Origin: Ktedonobacterales bacterium
Lineage (GTDB): Bacteria; Chloroflexota; Ktedonobacteria; Ktedonobacterales; Ktedonobacteraceae
Direction of reading: 5' to 3'
NCBI GenBank assembly: GCA_038199755.1
Contig: JBBPYR010000187.1
Span: 1-53,978, forward strand
DNA: 53,978 nucleotides
Part shown: piece by piece, positions 38,981 to 43,987 of the stretch
How positions within the stretch are numbered: the first letter of the stretch is position 1
Layout: every line of letters starts with the position of its first letter
Notes under the pieces: generated by a model
Seen by the model: only the letters and a program-made list of their open reading frames with translations
Told to the model about the DNA's origin: nothing
The model's database searches: none
Position numbers and translations under genes: made by a program

Positions 38981-39772
38981 TTGGGCGTGACAATATCAAT
39001 GGATATCGCACGCAGGGTGTTGGAAGCGAGTAAACAGCGGGCGCGTGAGTTACGCAGTCCGGTGAGTATCGCGATTGTTGACGCTGGCGGTCATCTTGTG
39101 CTCTTCGAGCGTATGATGTCGCCCTATGGGTGGGCAACAGCCAATATTAGCATTGCGAAGGCGAACACTGCCGTCATGTTTAACCAACCAACCGATGCAG
39201 TCGCACAATGGGGAGCCGCCATCCCTGGTTTTGCCTCTAGTCTATCAAGCATGACGGACGGCAAATTTATTATGGCGGCGGGTGGCTGGCCCATTCGTCT
39301 CAACGGTGTCACTATTGGCGGCATTGGAGTGAGCGGCGGCAATGCCCCCGGGCGTGACGACGAAATCGCACGCGCTGGCATGGGCGCGCTCGAAGCTCTG
39401 TCAGCCGCCATTCCCGCGCAGCCTGCTGCCCCGGTTGCCCCTGTGTCTGCTCAGCCAGTCCAACCTGCCTCGTCCGCGTCATCATATATGCCCTCCGTTG
39501 GACAACCTTTCTACTCGCCCTCTTCTCCATCCCAGAGTGCGATAGGCTCACAAGGCCCCCAGGGTTCGCCAGGACCAGTGCCCCAACAGCAGGCACAGTA
39601 CCGGCAAATCCCGCAGCCTTCACAGCCTGCTAACGGCAATTGGCAAACGCCAAAGAATGAGCCACCTTCTTCTCTCTCCGGTACTAACTATTTGCCAACG
39701 GAACAGGATGAGCAGTTTGGTGATGACGCATTTCAACCATATAGCAATGACCATTCGGGAGACCAAAAATGA
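38981..39772 (+). CDS. GlcG/HbpS-like (DUF336) protein with a Pro/Ser/Gln-rich C-terminal tail
   Basis: GTG start 8 nt after aaggag. IAIVDAGGHLVLFERMMSPYGWATANISIAKANTAVMF is the GlcG core. Confidence 0.7.
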   Translation: MGVTISMDIARRVLEASKQRARELRSPVSIAIVDAGGHLVLFERMMSPYGWATANISIAKANTAVMFNQPTDAVAQWGAAIPGFASSLSSMTDGKFIMAAGGWPIRLNGVTIGGIGVSGGNAPGRDDEIARAGMGALEALSAAIPAQPAAPVAPVSAQPVQPASSASSYMPSVGQPFYSPSSPSQSAIGSQGPQGSPGPVPQQQAQYRQIPQPSQPANGNWQTPKNEPPSSLSGTNYLPTEQDEQFGDDAFQPYSNDHSGDQK

Positions 39773-40605
39773 GCCAGGACTTCAATATAACTAGCCGCAA
39801 AACACGAAGAGCAGGACGCGGCAATCGCAGCCGCCCCGTTCTCGTGACCGCCACATCACCAGAGCAGGATGAGCAGAGCAGCGAAAGCACACTAACGGCT
39901 TCCACCGCTACACCTGTGCAGGAACTCTCTCCGCTGGTGGTGCCCACATCAACAGCAACACAGCCAAAGGCGCGTAAGCTGCCAGGCTTCTTACCCTCAC
40001 TCGCCAAAAGTCTTACAGGAGAGGGCAAGACGAAGGAAATAAAGGAAATTGATCCCGCGCAGGCACGTATCGCACGGGCCACACGCAAGATTCCAGCCAT
40101 CAGCAGCAAAAGTAGTACCGTCAAGAGCCAGAGCAAGGGCGAAAAAGTCGAGGAGACCAAGCCAGCACGTCCTGCCACCAGCACAGCGAAACCCACGCGG
40201 CCAGCGAGTGCGTTTAAGACGCGCTACATCTTTGGCATGGTGCTCTACCTGCTGGCCGCCAACTTTATCGGCGTCTTTGAAACCAACATCCTTCAGGGCT
40301 ATCATCTCGATTCCGTATTGACGCAGTTTAACTTGTTCGGTGGAAACATTATCATTCGTACCTCCACCCTCGTCTTCCTGGCAACCCTGGTTATCATTCT
40401 GGTAGTCCTGGCACGCCTGGATCTTATCCCACGCTCGCTTGGTGCCGCCACTGGCAGACCCGCCAATAATGCTGCTGCCTCAAGCAGTCGCAGCAGTAGC
40501 GAAAGCGAACGTGCCCCCCAACCCACCATCCGTCAGGGCATCAAAGGGGAAAGTGACGACCTGTACCAGCAATATCGCAGCGGCCAACGCCGCCAAAAGA
40601 AATAG
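39769..40605 (+). CDS. Hypothetical membrane protein with a long Ser/Thr/Lys-rich disordered N-terminus
   Basis: Its start overlaps the upstream stop (ATGA), suggesting translational coupling. Two to three TM helices lie in the C-terminal half. Confidence 0.45.
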   Translation: MSQDFNITSRKTRRAGRGNRSRPVLVTATSPEQDEQSSESTLTASTATPVQELSPLVVPTSTATQPKARKLPGFLPSLAKSLTGEGKTKEIKEIDPAQARIARATRKIPAISSKSSTVKSQSKGEKVEETKPARPATSTAKPTRPASAFKTRYIFGMVLYLLAANFIGVFETNILQGYHLDSVLTQFNLFGGNIIIRTSTLVFLATLVIILVVLARLDLIPRSLGAATGRPANNAAASSSRSSSESERAPQPTIRQGIKGESDDLYQQYRSGQRRQKK

Positions 40606-40718
40606 GCAGGACATTTGTTTTGACAGGGTACCCGCAAGGGGATGCCCTGTCTCACCTTGCAATCTCCATATGGAGATTTTGTCTATGCCCTTCTCCCTTT
40701 TACAGCAAATTCATACTC

Positions 40719-40748
40719 TTGACATTACTTGCACAGGGTCCTTATAAT
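40719..40748 (+). promoter_or_regulatory. Near-consensus sigma-70 promoter (TTGACA-N18-TATAAT) for the DAHP synthase leader
   Basis: TTGACA is at 40719-40724 and TATAAT at 40743-40748. Confidence 0.65.
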
Positions 40749-40804
40749 CATAATAAGAGCTACAATAGTTGTGGCGAAAAAAATCATTTCAGGAATTATT
40801 GAAA

Positions 40805-40885
40805 ATGCTCAGCAGCGACATAACCAACCAACAATTTAGCTTTTATTATTGGTTTAGCCCCCCCAGTATGAGGTGGGCTCTTTGA
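40805..40885 (+). CDS. Aromatic-amino-acid-rich leader peptide (MLSSDITNQQFSFYYWFSPPSMRWAL)
   Basis: 26 codons with aggaa 9 nt upstream. It carries the run F-S-F-Y-Y-W-F plus a second Trp, sits between the promoter and the terminator, and precedes DAHP synthase. Confidence 0.6.
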   Translation: MLSSDITNQQFSFYYWFSPPSMRWAL

Positions 40886-40916
40886 GCTGAGCAAAAAAAT
40901 CACCACCGCATACTGG

Positions 40917-40950
40917 GAAGCAGAGGAAATAACCTCTGCTTTTTTGTTTG
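40917..40950 (+). terminator. Intrinsic terminator (attenuator) 25 nt upstream of the DAHP synthase start
   Basis: Stem AAGCAGAGG / CCTCTGCTT, loop aaataa, then TTTTTGTTT. Immediately 5' of the stem lies CATACUGGG, complementary to CCCAGUAUG at 40862-40870, which could form an alternative structure. Confidence 0.65.
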
Positions 40951-40975
40951 CCAAATGTAAGAGAGGATAGAGATC

Positions 40976-42058
40976 ATGATTATCACCACCCGTAATGAAG
41001 CAACCAGCGAAGAACGTGCCCACCTAATGACGTTACTCTGCCGTATCACTGGTAGCCAGCATCCCATTGCCACCTGCGAAATTGATGATAAGACCGTCAT
41101 TGCTCTTGACGGCGTGAAAGTTGACGTGGAAGCACAGCACCTGCTCGCCCAAGAAAAGGCCGTCGAGCGCGTACTAGCCATCAAAACCGCCTACCAACTC
41201 ATCAGCCGCGCCTTCAAGCCAGAGAACAGCCGCATCGTTGTTGGTGTGGGACATGATTGCACGCCCGTTGTCATCGGTGGCGATAATTCTACCCCTGTTC
41301 TCATCGCTGGCCCATGCGCGGTTGAAAATCGCGACCAACTCCTCTCTATCGCACGTGGCGTGAAGAACGCGGGCGCAAACATTCTCCGTGGTGGTGCCTT
41401 CAAGCCACGCACCTCCCCCTACCAGTTCCAGGGGCTGGGCATTGAGGGACTACACCTGCTCTCCGAGGCCCGTCAACTTACCGGCCTGCCCGTCATCACC
41501 GAGGTTATGGAACCAGACACCGTCGAGATCGTGGCTCACCATGCCGACATCCTGCAAATTGGCAGCCGCAACATGCAAAATTACCCGCTCCTCCTCGCTG
41601 CTGGTCGCCACAGTGCCAAACGCCCAGTCATGCTCAAGCGCGGCCTCTCCGCCACCATCGATGAATGGCTACTAGCTGCCGAATACATCATGGCAGCAGG
41701 CAATCCCAACGTCATGCTGTGTGAACGCGGCATCCGCAGCTATGACCCAATGACCCGTAACGTGCTTGACCTCTCCTGTGTCCCACTCCTGCACGAACTC
41801 ACCCACCTTCCCATCATCGTAGACCCCAGCCATGCCACAGGCCGTCGCGAACTCGTCCCCACCATGTCCCGCGCCAGCATCGCAGCTGGAGCTGAAGGGC
41901 TGATCATTGAAGTTCACACCGATCCCAATAATGCCCTCTGCGATGGGCGTCAATCCATCACACCCGAACAACTGGCAAAGATTGTGCGCGACACCCATAT
42001 GCTCACAGCCATGATGAACGAAGCAAGCGCAGTACAGGAATTGTCGAGAGTTGCATAA
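40976..42058 (+). CDS. 3-deoxy-7-phosphoheptulonate (DAHP) synthase, type I-beta with an N-terminal regulatory domain
   Basis: DAHP_synth_1 core ([16 protein letters not shown]...[20 protein letters not shown]...[13 protein letters not shown]...KRG) preceded by an approximately 90-aa ferredoxin-like regulatory domain. Confidence 0.82.
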
Positions 42059-42239
42059 CAATTACAACATGGTAAGGGCAGTACATTCTCATGCGAAGCG
42101 TTATACGAAGCGTCGGCAGAATGCATGAGATTATGCTGCCCCTACCACGCATGGAACAAGTATGATATACTCTAGATAAGTGGAGAGAGAGTAGAACAAC
42201 TTTGTAGGGTGGATGACAGTAAGGCTTGAGGTGACAACT

Positions 42240-42812
42240 ATGCCAACACGCATTATTATTGCAGACGACGAAACCATTCAGCGCATGGACCTAAAAGATG
42301 TGCTGACCAAACAGGGCTATCTTGTGGTCGGTGAGGCAGGCGACGGCTTGAGTGCAGTCAACCTGGCCCGCGAGATACGTCCAGACCTCGTGATCATGGA
42401 TATTCGCATGCCCGATATGGATGGCATCGCAGCCGCCGAAACACTTACGCAGGAAAAAATCGCACCAGTGTTGTTGCTTACTGCCTTCGGTGATCAACCC
42501 CTCGTTGAACGCGCCAAAGAAGCGGGTGTCGTCAACTATGTCGTGAAGCCCCTGCGCGAAAGTGAAGTGGCTTCAGCCATTGAGATCGCGCTGGCCCGCT
42601 ATAACGAATTTCGCTCCCTTGAAGAGAAGACGCGCTCACTCACAGAACAACTGGAGACGCGCAAAATCGTCGAGCGGGCGAAAGGGCTTCTTATGGAAAA
42701 GCAAGGCCTGACTGAGGCCGAAGCTTTCCGCAAGATCCAAAAGGCCAGCATGAACAACCGCAAGTCTATGCGCGAAGTAGCAGAGGCCATTCTGCTCACT
42801 AACGAAATGTAA
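42240..42812 (+). CDS. Response regulator with a REC domain and a C-terminal ANTAR RNA-binding domain (AmiR/NasT type)
   Basis: IIIADDETIQRMDLKDVL...DLVIMDIRMPDMDG is the REC domain. ANTAR helices: RKIVERAKGLLMEKQGLTEAEAFRKIQKASMNNRKSMREVAEAIL. Confidence 0.85.
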   Translation: MPTRIIIADDETIQRMDLKDVLTKQGYLVVGEAGDGLSAVNLAREIRPDLVIMDIRMPDMDGIAAAETLTQEKIAPVLLLTAFGDQPLVERAKEAGVVNYVVKPLRESEVASAIEIALARYNEFRSLEEKTRSLTEQLETRKIVERAKGLLMEKQGLTEAEAFRKIQKASMNNRKSMREVAEAILLTNEM

Positions 42813-42874: not shown

Positions 42875-43987
42875 ATGTCATCGGTAATCAGCCAAGAAAA
42901 GACCGTTGTTATTGTCGGCATTCGTTTTCGTCCAGCCGGGCGTATTTACTACTTTGACCCACAGGAACAATCTTTTCATACTGGACAATTTGTCATTGTC
43001 GAGACAGTACGTGGAGTAGAGGCTGGACGCGTGGTGATCGCCCCCAAGAAAATTGCGGAGAGCGATTTAAGCGATCCGCTCAAACCAGTTCAACGCCTTG
43101 CTACCGAAGACGAATTGCGCATGATGCTCTCTTTCAAAAGCAAAGAGAAAGAGGCAATAGTTCGTTGTGCCGAACGCATCTCGCAACATCGTTTACCAAT
43201 GAAACTCGTCGAGGCCGAATACACCTTTGATGGCAGCCGACTCACCTTCTATTTTACGGCAGAAGAGCGCGTCGATTTTCGCGTGCTTGTTCGTGACCTG
43301 GCTGCTACCTTTCGTACACGCATCGAACTACGCCAGATCGGAGCGCGTGACCAGGCCAAACTTCAGGGTGGCATTGGCCCATGTGGTAAAACACTGTGCT
43401 GCAGCTCCTGGATCAGCGAGTTCGGGGTCGTCTCTATCAAAATGGCAAAAGAACAGGGACTACCACTTAACCCCGCAAAAATCTCCGGCGTCTGCGGACG
43501 TTTGCTTTGCTGCCTCTCATACGAGAACGATAATTATATTCAGAGCAAGCAACAAATGCCAGCAATCGGCTCTATGCTCCCAACACCCAGCGGACTCGGA
43601 CGTGTTGTCTCCGTCAATGTACCTCACAGTACGGTTGAAGTCCTACTCGAAAGCGGCGTCATCATTCAGACGCCCGTTCACCAACCCGAAAATGAGCAAG
43701 CAGCGATGACTGGTTCGGCCAACAAAGAGGCCAGAGGGTGTGGCAGTTGTAGTGCTAAAAGCGGCGGCGGTGGTTGTAGCTCCTGTGGCGTTAGCAGCGC
43801 GAGCAGTGATAGCACAAGCAGTAGCAGTGGCGGTTGTGGCTGTGGCAAGAGCGGTAGCGGGAGGGGTGGTTGTAGCACAAAAGCACATGACACAAAAAGC
43901 AAAGGTTGCGCTTCTTGTAGTATTTCGTCCGCTCAGGGTGTCCCGTCCTCCAATAGAAATGAAGAAAGCAAGCAAACAGTTAGGTGA
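42875..43987 (+). CDS. PSP1 C-terminal domain protein (YaaT/RicT-like) with a Gly/Ser/Cys-rich C-terminal tail
   Basis: VIVGIRFRPAGRIYYFDP...GPCGKTLCCSSW...GVCGRLLCCLSYEN is the PSP1 core with conserved Cys pairs. The tail carries about 12 Cys (GCGSCSAKSGGGGCSSCG...GGCGCGKSGSGRGGCS...GCASCS). Confidence 0.7.
   Translation: MSSVISQEKTVVIVGIRFRPAGRIYYFDPQEQSFHTGQFVIVETVRGVEAGRVVIAPKKIAESDLSDPLKPVQRLATEDELRMMLSFKSKEKEAIVRCAERISQHRLPMKLVEAEYTFDGSRLTFYFTAEERVDFRVLVRDLAATFRTRIELRQIGARDQAKLQGGIGPCGKTLCCSSWISEFGVVSIKMAKEQGLPLNPAKISGVCGRLLCCLSYENDNYIQSKQQMPAIGSMLPTPSGLGRVVSVNVPHSTVEVLLESGVIIQTPVHQPENEQAAMTGSANKEARGCGSCSAKSGGGGCSSCGVSSASSDSTSSSSGGCGCGKSGSGRGGCSTKAHDTKSKGCASCSISSAQGVPSSNRNEESKQTVR

Follow-up and report, generated by a model that had tools for sequence, protein, structure and literature searches.

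How is the entry enzyme of aromatic amino acid biosynthesis controlled in a Ktedonobacterales bacterium? The question is raised by contig JBBPYR010000187.1 (assembly GCA_038199755.1), of which we analysed positions 1 to 53,978 on the forward strand (hereafter the window). Here, the gene of a type I-beta 3-deoxy-D-arabino-heptulosonate 7-phosphate (DAHP) synthase is preceded by a promoter, a short open reading frame (ORF) crowded with phenylalanine (Phe), tyrosine (Tyr) and tryptophan (Trp) codons, a helix and an intrinsic terminator. We conclude that this leader region is probably a ribosome-mediated transcription attenuator, which would tune DAHP synthase to the supply of charged Phe, Tyr and Trp transfer RNA (tRNA); we put the probability of this reading at about 0.75. 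The region belongs to a large family unmatched in Rfam. The attenuator reading is supported, among other results, by the findings that the aromatic class of the sensor residues is kept while their codons change, and that all the controlled genes belong to the aromatic pathway. The features of the region are as follows (positions in the window; nt, nucleotides; P1a and P1b are the two parts of helix P1).

40719 to 40748, forward strand: sigma-70-type promoter, TTGACA (40719-40724) and TATAAT (40743-40748) separated by 18 nt, a 12/12 consensus match.
40759 to 40775, forward strand: predicted 5' stem-loop of the leader transcript, in the minimum-free-energy and centroid folds.
40791 to 40794, forward strand: weak Shine-Dalgarno-like AGGA, 10 nt before the leader ATG, seen in the sequence.
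40805 to 40885, forward strand: leader ORF MLSSDITNQQFSFYYWFSPPSMRWAL, from ATG 40805 to the stop TGA 40883-40885, from the ORF listing.
40806 to 40813, forward strand: 5' strand of helix A, UGCUCAGC, including the UG of the leader start codon, from alignment and duplex energy.
40835 to 40855, forward strand: putative sensor codons F-S-F-Y-Y-W-F (UUU AGC UUU UAU UAU UGG UUU), from aromatic density and conservation.
40862 to 40870, forward strand: 5' strand of helix P1a, CCCAGUAUG, including AUG 40868-40870, from the fold and the consensus alignment.
40872 to 40876, forward strand: 5' strand of helix P1b, GGUGG, from the fold and the consensus alignment.
40877 to 40887, forward strand: inner hairpin GCUC-UUU-GAGC, whose loop and 3' arm contain the leader stop UGA (40883-40885), from covariation.
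40886 to 40893, forward strand: 3' strand of helix A, GCUGAGCA, including the canonical second stop UGA 40888-40890, from alignment and a masked fold.
40903 to 40907, forward strand: 3' strand of helix P1b, CCACC, from the fold and the consensus alignment.
40909 to 40917, forward strand: 3' strand of helix P1a, CAUACUGGG, from the fold.
40918 to 40949, forward strand: intrinsic terminator AAGCAGAGG-AAAUAA-CCUCUGCUU followed by UUUUGUUU, from the fold, about -13.7 to -15 kcal/mol.
40961 to 40967, forward strand: Shine-Dalgarno sequence GAGAGGA of the DAHP synthase gene, seen in the sequence.
40976 to 42058, forward strand: the regulated gene, type I-beta DAHP synthase, 360 residues with an N-terminal extension, Pfam DAHP_synth_1, E = 2e-77.

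The aromatic run of the leader is far beyond chance. Six of the seven residues in FSFYYWF are aromatic, and among the 85,132 seven-residue segments read in six frames over the whole 54 kb it is the only one holding at least six. The 221-nt leader is also more stable than 200 of 200 shuffled sequences (fold z-score -3.98). An earlier reading of this DNA (the original prediction) had named the promoter, the terminator, a 9-bp helix and the enzyme with its regulatory domain, and all of these held up. The promoter is the sole 12/12 match between 38500 and 43000 in a consensus promoter scan, and its equivalent, CTTGACA...TATAAT, stands at the same position in orthologues L001-L012. The helix CCCAGUAUG:CAUACUGGG (40862-40870 with 40909-40917) is present in the minimum-free-energy fold, and the terminator before the gene folds at about -14 to -15 kcal/mol. 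A consensus terminator scan of the region did not list this terminator; a G-U-tolerant extension of the stem, in which GGG pairs with UUU, would consume the U tract and may be the reason. Besides its Pfam match, the enzyme aligns with the type I-beta enzyme of Thermotoga maritima (1RZM) from residue 38, which fits a predicted N-terminal regulatory domain. The claim of a Shine-Dalgarno-preceded 26-codon ORF stood in part: the ORF lies at 40805-40885 with 7 of 26 residues aromatic, while its Shine-Dalgarno sequence is only AGGA and its length is specific to the window. Among orthologues, a GGA recurs at similar spacing before the leader ATG, and by eye the 5' hairpin can also form in them from differing sequences.

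We then asked how far the arrangement extends. The DAHP synthase protein was searched against one genome per species and the upstream regions were inspected (the enzyme-first set). The nearest enzyme, 76% identical, belongs to a Ktedonobacteraceae metagenome-assembled genome (MAG), followed by Dictyobacter, Thermosporothrix and Thermogemmatispora. Upstream of DAHP synthase, all 13 of the closest, Ktedonobacteria-like loci (L001-L013) carry the same order, in which a promoter is followed by ATGCTCAGC..., a segment of variable sequence, FSFYYWFSPPA or something close to it, the helix, a small hairpin that covaries and the terminator AAGCAGAGG-loop-CCUCUGCUUUUUUGUUU. A compact form of the element, with leaders of 10-12 codons such as MSTFFFYRTPA, MNAPYWFTPPA, MTTYFWYPSPA and MNDLFYFRRPA, precedes the gene in 10 more distant loci of other base composition. 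Their MAGs are labelled Chloroflexota, Limnocylindrales, Polarisedimenticolia, Dormiibacterota and Verrucomicrobiia; at phylum level the labels across the distant loci are Chloroflexota, Acidobacteriota, Dormibacterota and Verrucomicrobiota, with the reservation that MAG labels may be wrong. Thus the conserved short ORFs rich in F, Y and W that the original prediction had suggested seeking upstream of orthologues were found in 13 of 13 close loci and in 10 distant ones, and the proposed aromatic-sensing leader-peptide device gains from the conservation of mini-ORF, helix and terminator in several phyla.

A sequence-pattern scan added at least 120 further loci on metagenome contigs; its pattern contained GCATGA and the terminator core, and only the enzyme-first set is unbiased for these bases. 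The two sets combined hold at least 130 distinct elements. Among the matches listed, DAHP synthase lies downstream on the same strand in 118 of the 131 elements with usable downstream sequence. Six unmatched elements with at least 300 nt downstream precede four short DAHP synthase fragments, one chorismate mutase and one aroK-aroB gene. Specifically, a leader and terminator copy at L102:2866-3008 stands before a type I (AroH) chorismate mutase, and another at L092:2057-2204 (minus strand) before a shikimate kinase/3-dehydroquinate synthase (aroK-aroB) fusion, so that some Ktedonobacteria-type genomes may have a small aromatic regulon. These counts bear on the simplest alternative, a chance ORF beside an ordinary terminator or insulator between genes. 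Short ORFs are abundant in any sequence, but the aromatic run is unique in the window and the arrangement recurs in more than 140 loci of several phyla, always before aromatic-pathway genes. The conservation of the arrangement refutes this explanation, and we regard its probability as next to nil.

Searched against Rfam, the window and 12 related loci gave no family at or above its gathering score, apart from tRNAs in the 12 loci. In addition, a pair of tRNA genes on the opposite strand lies within about 1.3 kb upstream in 7 of 7 loci searched (L013, L025, L035, L064, L065, L070 and L074), which points to conserved synteny across those high-GC MAGs.

The sensor codons show what is selected in the leader. 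Mini-ORFs are present in the 23 enzyme-first loci and in most metagenome loci; 8 of the 120 listed have no ATG-initiated in-frame ORF. The aromatic class is kept while residues and codons change (FYF, FFFY, YWF, FWY, YLF). Counting back from the canonical stop in an alignment of 82 distinct high-GC sequences, position -5 is aromatic in all 82 copies, -7 in 78 and -6 in 68. Among these 82 leaders, Phe at -5 is encoded by UUU in 47 of 47 cases, and Phe at -7 by UUC in 52 of 53. Either slow decoding of the last sensor codon or an RNA-level constraint may lie behind this position-dependent choice of codon. UUU is the rarer Phe codon in GC-rich genomes, and position -5 would therefore be the slowest sensor position to decode.

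The terminator is conserved in all members. Its core, GCAGAGG/CCUCUGC (40920-40939 in the window), is identical in 23 of 24 enzyme-first elements of very different GC contents (L001-L013, L025, L034, L035, L039, L054, L061, L064, L065, L070 and L074), and U6-G-U3 follows it in most copies. The exception is L023, from a Thermomicrobiales MAG, which has CCGAGG/CCUCGG instead and keeps both the sensor-to-P1 and the P1-to-terminator spacing of the family despite its divergent sequence. Such invariance goes much beyond what a hairpin needs. We also noticed that GAGG(U) within the core resembles a Shine-Dalgarno sequence and CCUC an anti-Shine-Dalgarno sequence.

Strictness of this kind in the cores of P1 and the terminator, exceeding the demands of pairing, could indicate recognition by a factor, and thus a structured non-coding leader (a riboswitch or a protein-binding site) in which the ORF is incidental or serves only to load ribosomes. 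However, the sensor codons stay aromatic although their bases differ between copies, start codon and frame are retained, a stop is maintained in the AUG frame with all three stop codons in use, and no Rfam family matches. On these grounds we consider a non-coding leader highly unlikely.

The predicted RNA structure is shared by the two types of the family, the high-GC type and the Ktedonobacteria type, whose consensus structure has the same helices. In the structure alignment, 90% of cells are paired, compared with 34-48% in slid-partner controls. The inner hairpin covaries between GCCC/GGGC, GCCU/AGGC and GCUC/GAGC, and 5 of its 7 pairs are changed on both sides across the sequences. The core of P1 is near-invariant within the high-GC type and shows a compensated difference between the two types; the window itself has a compensatory change, GUAUG/CAUAC where its relatives have GCAUG/CAUGC. 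The 3' strand of P1a directly adjoins the terminator stem, with a linker of 0-2 nt depending on how far the two stems are extended. The two subfamilies have only GCAUGA/CRUGC in common. A G-quadruplex and a put-like polymerase-modifying RNA were considered and set aside, given these few shared bases and the missing G tracts in the Ktedonobacteria type.

Another helix, helix A, is restricted to the Ktedonobacteria type. Among 39 sequences of this type, 98.1% of its cells are paired and 3 pairs are changed on both sides, its duplex energy is -19.1 kcal/mol versus -13.7 kcal/mol in shuffles, and it emerges in the window fold once the 5' strand of P1 is masked. Helix A crosses P1, and the two would therefore form a pseudoknot with an A-rich stretch as its third loop. 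As modelled, helix A could form only with the ribosome off the second stop, and it would conceal the leader start codon.

The end of the leader peptide is as distinctive as its sensor codons. In most members the leader ends in proline-alanine-UGA (Pro-Ala-UGA), with the stop inside the 5' strand of P1 (CCCGGCAUGAyC or CUCCAGCAUGAUGGUGG). The AUGA is a stop/start overlap, whose AUG opens a second mini-ORF. Among the matches listed, comprising 126 sequences, this mini-ORF is 6-7 codons long in 109, and its stop is TGA in 68, TAG in 48 and TAA in 5. The first stop in the other two frames has a median distance of about 81 nt. The second stop lies near the hairpin tip, and the last stop falls 26-34 nt before GCAGAGG in 112 of the 126 (34 nt in the window). 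That TGA, TAG and TAA all occur in this one frame suggests selection for halting ribosomes there. A third ORF, which would begin at a GUG or AUG within the P1 3' strand and continue across the terminator, was rejected: its frame is not conserved (54/36/36), and the start-like triplet is therefore a by-product of pairing with the AUG.

The window departs from this pattern. By alignment, AUG 40868-40870 is the counterpart of the AUGA overlap of the family. At 40858-40864 the window has seven C, whereas close relatives have six bases (CCCTCC or CCCCCC). The extra C shifts the leader frame, so that the leader ORF of the window appears to be the first ORF of the family (ORF1) fused in frame with the second mini-ORF. 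With six C it becomes canonical, reading ...FSPPV-UGA with the overlapping AUG and then MRWAL-stop; in the relatives, the counterpart of the 26-codon ORF is a leader of 20-24 codons ending in SPPA-UGA with the overlapping second mini-ORF. Either a genuine variant of this lineage or a homopolymer sequencing error could account for the seventh C. In total, five variants (the window, L008, L012, L023 and L089) reach the second stop by other routes. ORF1 is fused to the second stop in L012, L023 and L089, and in L008 the UGA has become UGC together with one extra hairpin base.

These variants also bear on the idea of a TnaC-type nascent-peptide sensor, in which an aromatic-x-x-Pro-Ala peptide lying in the exit tunnel would detect free aromatic amino acids and prevent release at the UGA. 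The arrested ribosome would stay on P1 and cause termination; without ligand the ribosome would leave and P1 would refold. The regulatory sign of this scheme is correct, the aromatics stand at a fixed distance from the stop, and Pro at -2, Ala at -1 and the UGA are conserved in most copies, Pro even through a synonymous change from CCG to CCA that is compensated on the other helix strand. However, the GCA and UGA codons are dictated by the AUGA overlap and by P1 pairing. In addition, Pro-Ala-UGA is absent or read through in the five variants, which lack a stop there and continue in frame, and the Pro-Ala-stop context therefore appears dispensable. The free exchange of F, Y and W is expected of codon sensing rather than of a specific peptide, and such a sensor would still need P1-dependent read-through to be explained. 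Taken together, we consider a nascent-peptide sensor unlikely.

The spacing of the element connects the sensor codons to P1 and P1 to the terminator. The distance from the first base of the -5 codon to the start of P1 is 8 nt (9 nt in the window), and both alignments are free of gaps over this interval. With the -5 codon in the A site, P1 would begin at about +11 to +13 counted from the P site, where work on the ribosomal helicase site places the leading edge of the ribosome. A ribosome stalled on the last sensor codon would thus just touch P1, and each further step would melt it. On the other side, the 3' end of P1 is separated from the fully extended terminator stem by an unpaired linker of 0-6 nt, mostly 0-3, in 121 of 121 aligned sequences, and the end of P1 lies 28-33 nt from the end of the U tract.

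Based on these spacings, the proposed attenuator would work as follows. When aromatic aminoacyl-tRNA is scarce, the ribosome would stall at positions -7 to -5 and P1 would remain folded; in Ktedonobacteria, the pseudoknot with helix A would then lock P1 and mask the leader start codon. When the supply is ample, the ribosome would enter P1, melt it and end at the first stop, after which it would re-initiate at the overlapping AUG or, in the window, simply continue. It would occupy the hairpin until the second stop while the polymerase transcribes the last 28-33 nt. Since a biosynthetic gene must rise on starvation, folded P1 would mean read-through and melted P1 termination. For the read-out, folded P1 would bring the stalled ribosome to a distance of 0-6 nt from the foot of the terminator stem, which would keep the lower stem from being completed in the exit channel of the polymerase.

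Several points weigh against this attenuator. One is the antiterminator search. No base belongs to both P1 and the terminator, and the two occur together in every fold, whether or not ribosome masks were applied. The terminator arm forms no better duplex with the hairpin region (-10.1 versus -10.4 kcal/mol in shuffles) or with the 5' codons (-6.3 versus -7.5 kcal/mol in shuffles). Mutually exclusive hairpins chosen by ribosome position are thus not part of the element, and with no detectable antiterminator the link between ribosome position and termination is left to physiological logic and spacing. Small RNA structures placed directly against a terminator, for example the preQ1-I riboswitch, are not known to block termination; this precedent casts doubt on a steric effect of RNA alone, and a contribution from the stalled ribosome would be needed. 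Furthermore, the high-GC leaders have almost no 5' untranslated region (UTR) and no Shine-Dalgarno sequence, and their translation is a prediction only. The invariance of GCATGA and the terminator core within the metagenome set is circular because both were part of the search pattern. Finally, all of the evidence is computational, and read-through is a prediction in every organism that carries the element.

The same search decides on the classical trp/pheA-type attenuator, in which the helix 40862-40870:40909-40917 would be an antiterminator or a 1:2 hairpin and a 2:3 helix would compete with the 3:4 terminator. In favour of this model, leader ORF, hairpin and terminator follow one another in the expected general order, and the Rfam Phe_leader family (RF01859) aligns faintly over its full length at 40819-40948 (16 bits, E = 5.8). 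However, that score is far under the gathering score of 55 bits, and helix and terminator, having no nucleotides in common, coexist in the minimum-free-energy fold. We folded full-length transcripts and transcripts ending before the 3' arm of the terminator, and no partner for GCAGAGG was freed by a ribosome mask at every codon in six sequences, or by masks at the aromatic codons and the stop in fifteen sequences. Consensus folds of 82 and 38 sequences at three ribosome positions gave no conserved alternative pairing, and the duplex energies of the terminator arm equal those of shuffles. In addition, because the spacing puts the helix at the leading edge, a ribosome stalled on the aromatic codons leaves the 5' strand of the helix uncovered. 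Computation thus largely refutes the classical attenuator, which we judge very unlikely. The original prediction had held that the layout mirrors the trp, pheA, his and leu attenuators and had suggested folding the RNA for mutually exclusive structures; that comparison fails at this point, with P1 and the terminator coexisting and a 2:3-type antiterminator lacking.

Two other pairings were tried and rejected. In a few single-sequence folds, that of L074 among them, the pyrimidines of the aromatic codons pair with the purine-rich arm of the terminator; across the family this pairing is weaker than in shuffles, and it would have the wrong regulatory sign. Pairing of the 3' strand of P1 downstream of the terminator is strong in L012 and, judged by eye, in L013, and is not general (mean z = 0.26). 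About 30 nt past the terminator, L012 has a near-perfect complement of the P1 3' strand (-27.9 kcal/mol, z = -5 versus shuffles).

Within the attenuator reading, the absence of a competing helix leaves a steric read-out as the leading candidate, still a hypothesis. The full design that we propose has no antiterminator: a hairpin reaches from the edge of the stalled ribosome to the terminator, the block is steric, and the AUGA overlap and the second mini-ORF hold the ribosome. We put this design forward tentatively, as a possible arrangement that may well turn out otherwise. A factor recognising the invariant terminator core, or an undetected pairing, is a possible alternative read-out.

Leader-peptide attenuation in general is a classical mechanism. 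Leader control had been thought undescribed for DAHP synthases, and this novelty claim was wrong in view of one system already described and another already proposed. In Corynebacterium glutamicum, as related in papers citing Neshat et al. 2014, the aroR leader (Phe-Tyr-Phe) attenuates aroF, whose expression rises on ribosome stalling under Phe limitation (PMC11802643, PMC4046766, PMC7356990). In Acholeplasma, the candidate upstream ORF uORFC-13-1 occurs exclusively before aroF/DAHP synthase; it has a promoter, a ribosome-binding site and Phe codons, lies directly upstream of an intrinsic terminator and has an additional conserved base-paired element (Brewer et al. 2021, PMC8632094). The same paper also refers to an older suggestion that aroF of E. 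coli is controlled by attenuation.

Compared by its description, uORFC-13-1 resembles our family in the Phe-codon upstream ORF and the terminator before DAHP synthase and in the extra paired element; it differs in its low-GC Tenericutes host and in a U run that codes for Phe, whereas the present family mixes F, Y and W. The likeness to C. glutamicum aroR-aroF is functional only, drawn from the published description and not from the leader RNA sequence: an aromatic leader peptide stands directly upstream of a DAHP synthase gene, and F-Y-F occurs in many high-GC members as well (for example MSPTFYFRCPA). The C. glutamicum AroF, which we take to be a type I-alpha enzyme, differs from the type I-beta enzyme of the window, and its host belongs to the Actinobacteria, whereas the present family is found in Chloroflexota and other phyla.

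With the trp, pheA, his and leu operons of E. coli, the family has in common a short leader rich in codons of the regulated amino acid, an intrinsic terminator before a biosynthetic gene, and an RNA fold that would be decided by ribosome position. Unlike them, it has no 2:3 antiterminator helix, its regulatory codons lie just upstream of the first hairpin strand and not inside it, its leader stop falls inside the hairpin with an AUGA overlap and a conserved second mini-ORF, and its hairpin abuts the terminator with a linker of 0-6 nt. The nearest analogue of the proposed steric read-out is E. coli pyrBI/pyrE, which has no alternative hairpin and where terminator function depends on ribosome proximity. 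There, translation proceeds as far as the terminator or into it, with polymerase pausing that depends on uridine triphosphate (UTP) as the signal. In the present family, the leader ORF is not translated to or through the terminator hairpin; it ends about 30 nt before it, and closeness would arise only via the folding of P1. New here are the family itself, which is missing from Rfam, its spread over Chloroflexota and neighbouring phyla, and its antiterminator-free layout.

The surroundings of the element gave further observations. The upstream gene (39769-40605) encodes a low-complexity protein of 278 residues without a Pfam match, and two hairpins, 40613-40651 and 40661-40678, lie between it and the leader promoter. 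The second is listed as terminator-like by the terminator scan, a similar hairpin follows the homologous upstream gene in L001, and the two probably terminate the upstream gene. Following DAHP synthase, the window encodes a response regulator with an ANTAR RNA-binding domain (42213-42812) and a PSP1-domain protein (42875-43987). The order DAHP synthase, ANTAR regulator, PSP1 is retained in 9 Ktedonobacteria loci, across which the regulator is about 87-93% identical, exceeding the conservation of the enzyme. A link between this regulator and the leader was rejected, its synteny being confined to Ktedonobacteria and no ANTAR-type dual hexaloop hairpins being visible by eye.

A different arrangement was seen in Paenibacillus and Cohnella (L014-L080), where the 5' UTR of DAHP synthase has 4-9 tandem 8-nt units, NNAAAGCN. 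The array begins right after a TTGACg-N17-TATATT promoter, about 60-150 nt upstream of the start codon; five perfect ATAAAAGC units are present in L038 and about nine units in L021. The array resembles a set of binding sites for an oligomeric RNA- or DNA-binding regulator of the gene. A second leader family suspected in Paenibacillus ('..LYIYFSD') was rejected as an artefact, its ORF overlapping the -10 box of the promoter.

If the attenuator reading is right, the known reach of leader-peptide control over the entry enzyme of the aromatic pathway would come to include Chloroflexota and MAGs from neighbouring soil phyla. The family signature, with at least 130 distinct sequences outside Rfam, can be used by genome annotators. 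The layout raises the question of how a ribosome controls a terminator without a competing hairpin, and its spacing rules make this testable. Furthermore, the leader is a target for deregulating flux through the shikimate pathway in its carriers, in the way that aroR has been used in C. glutamicum.

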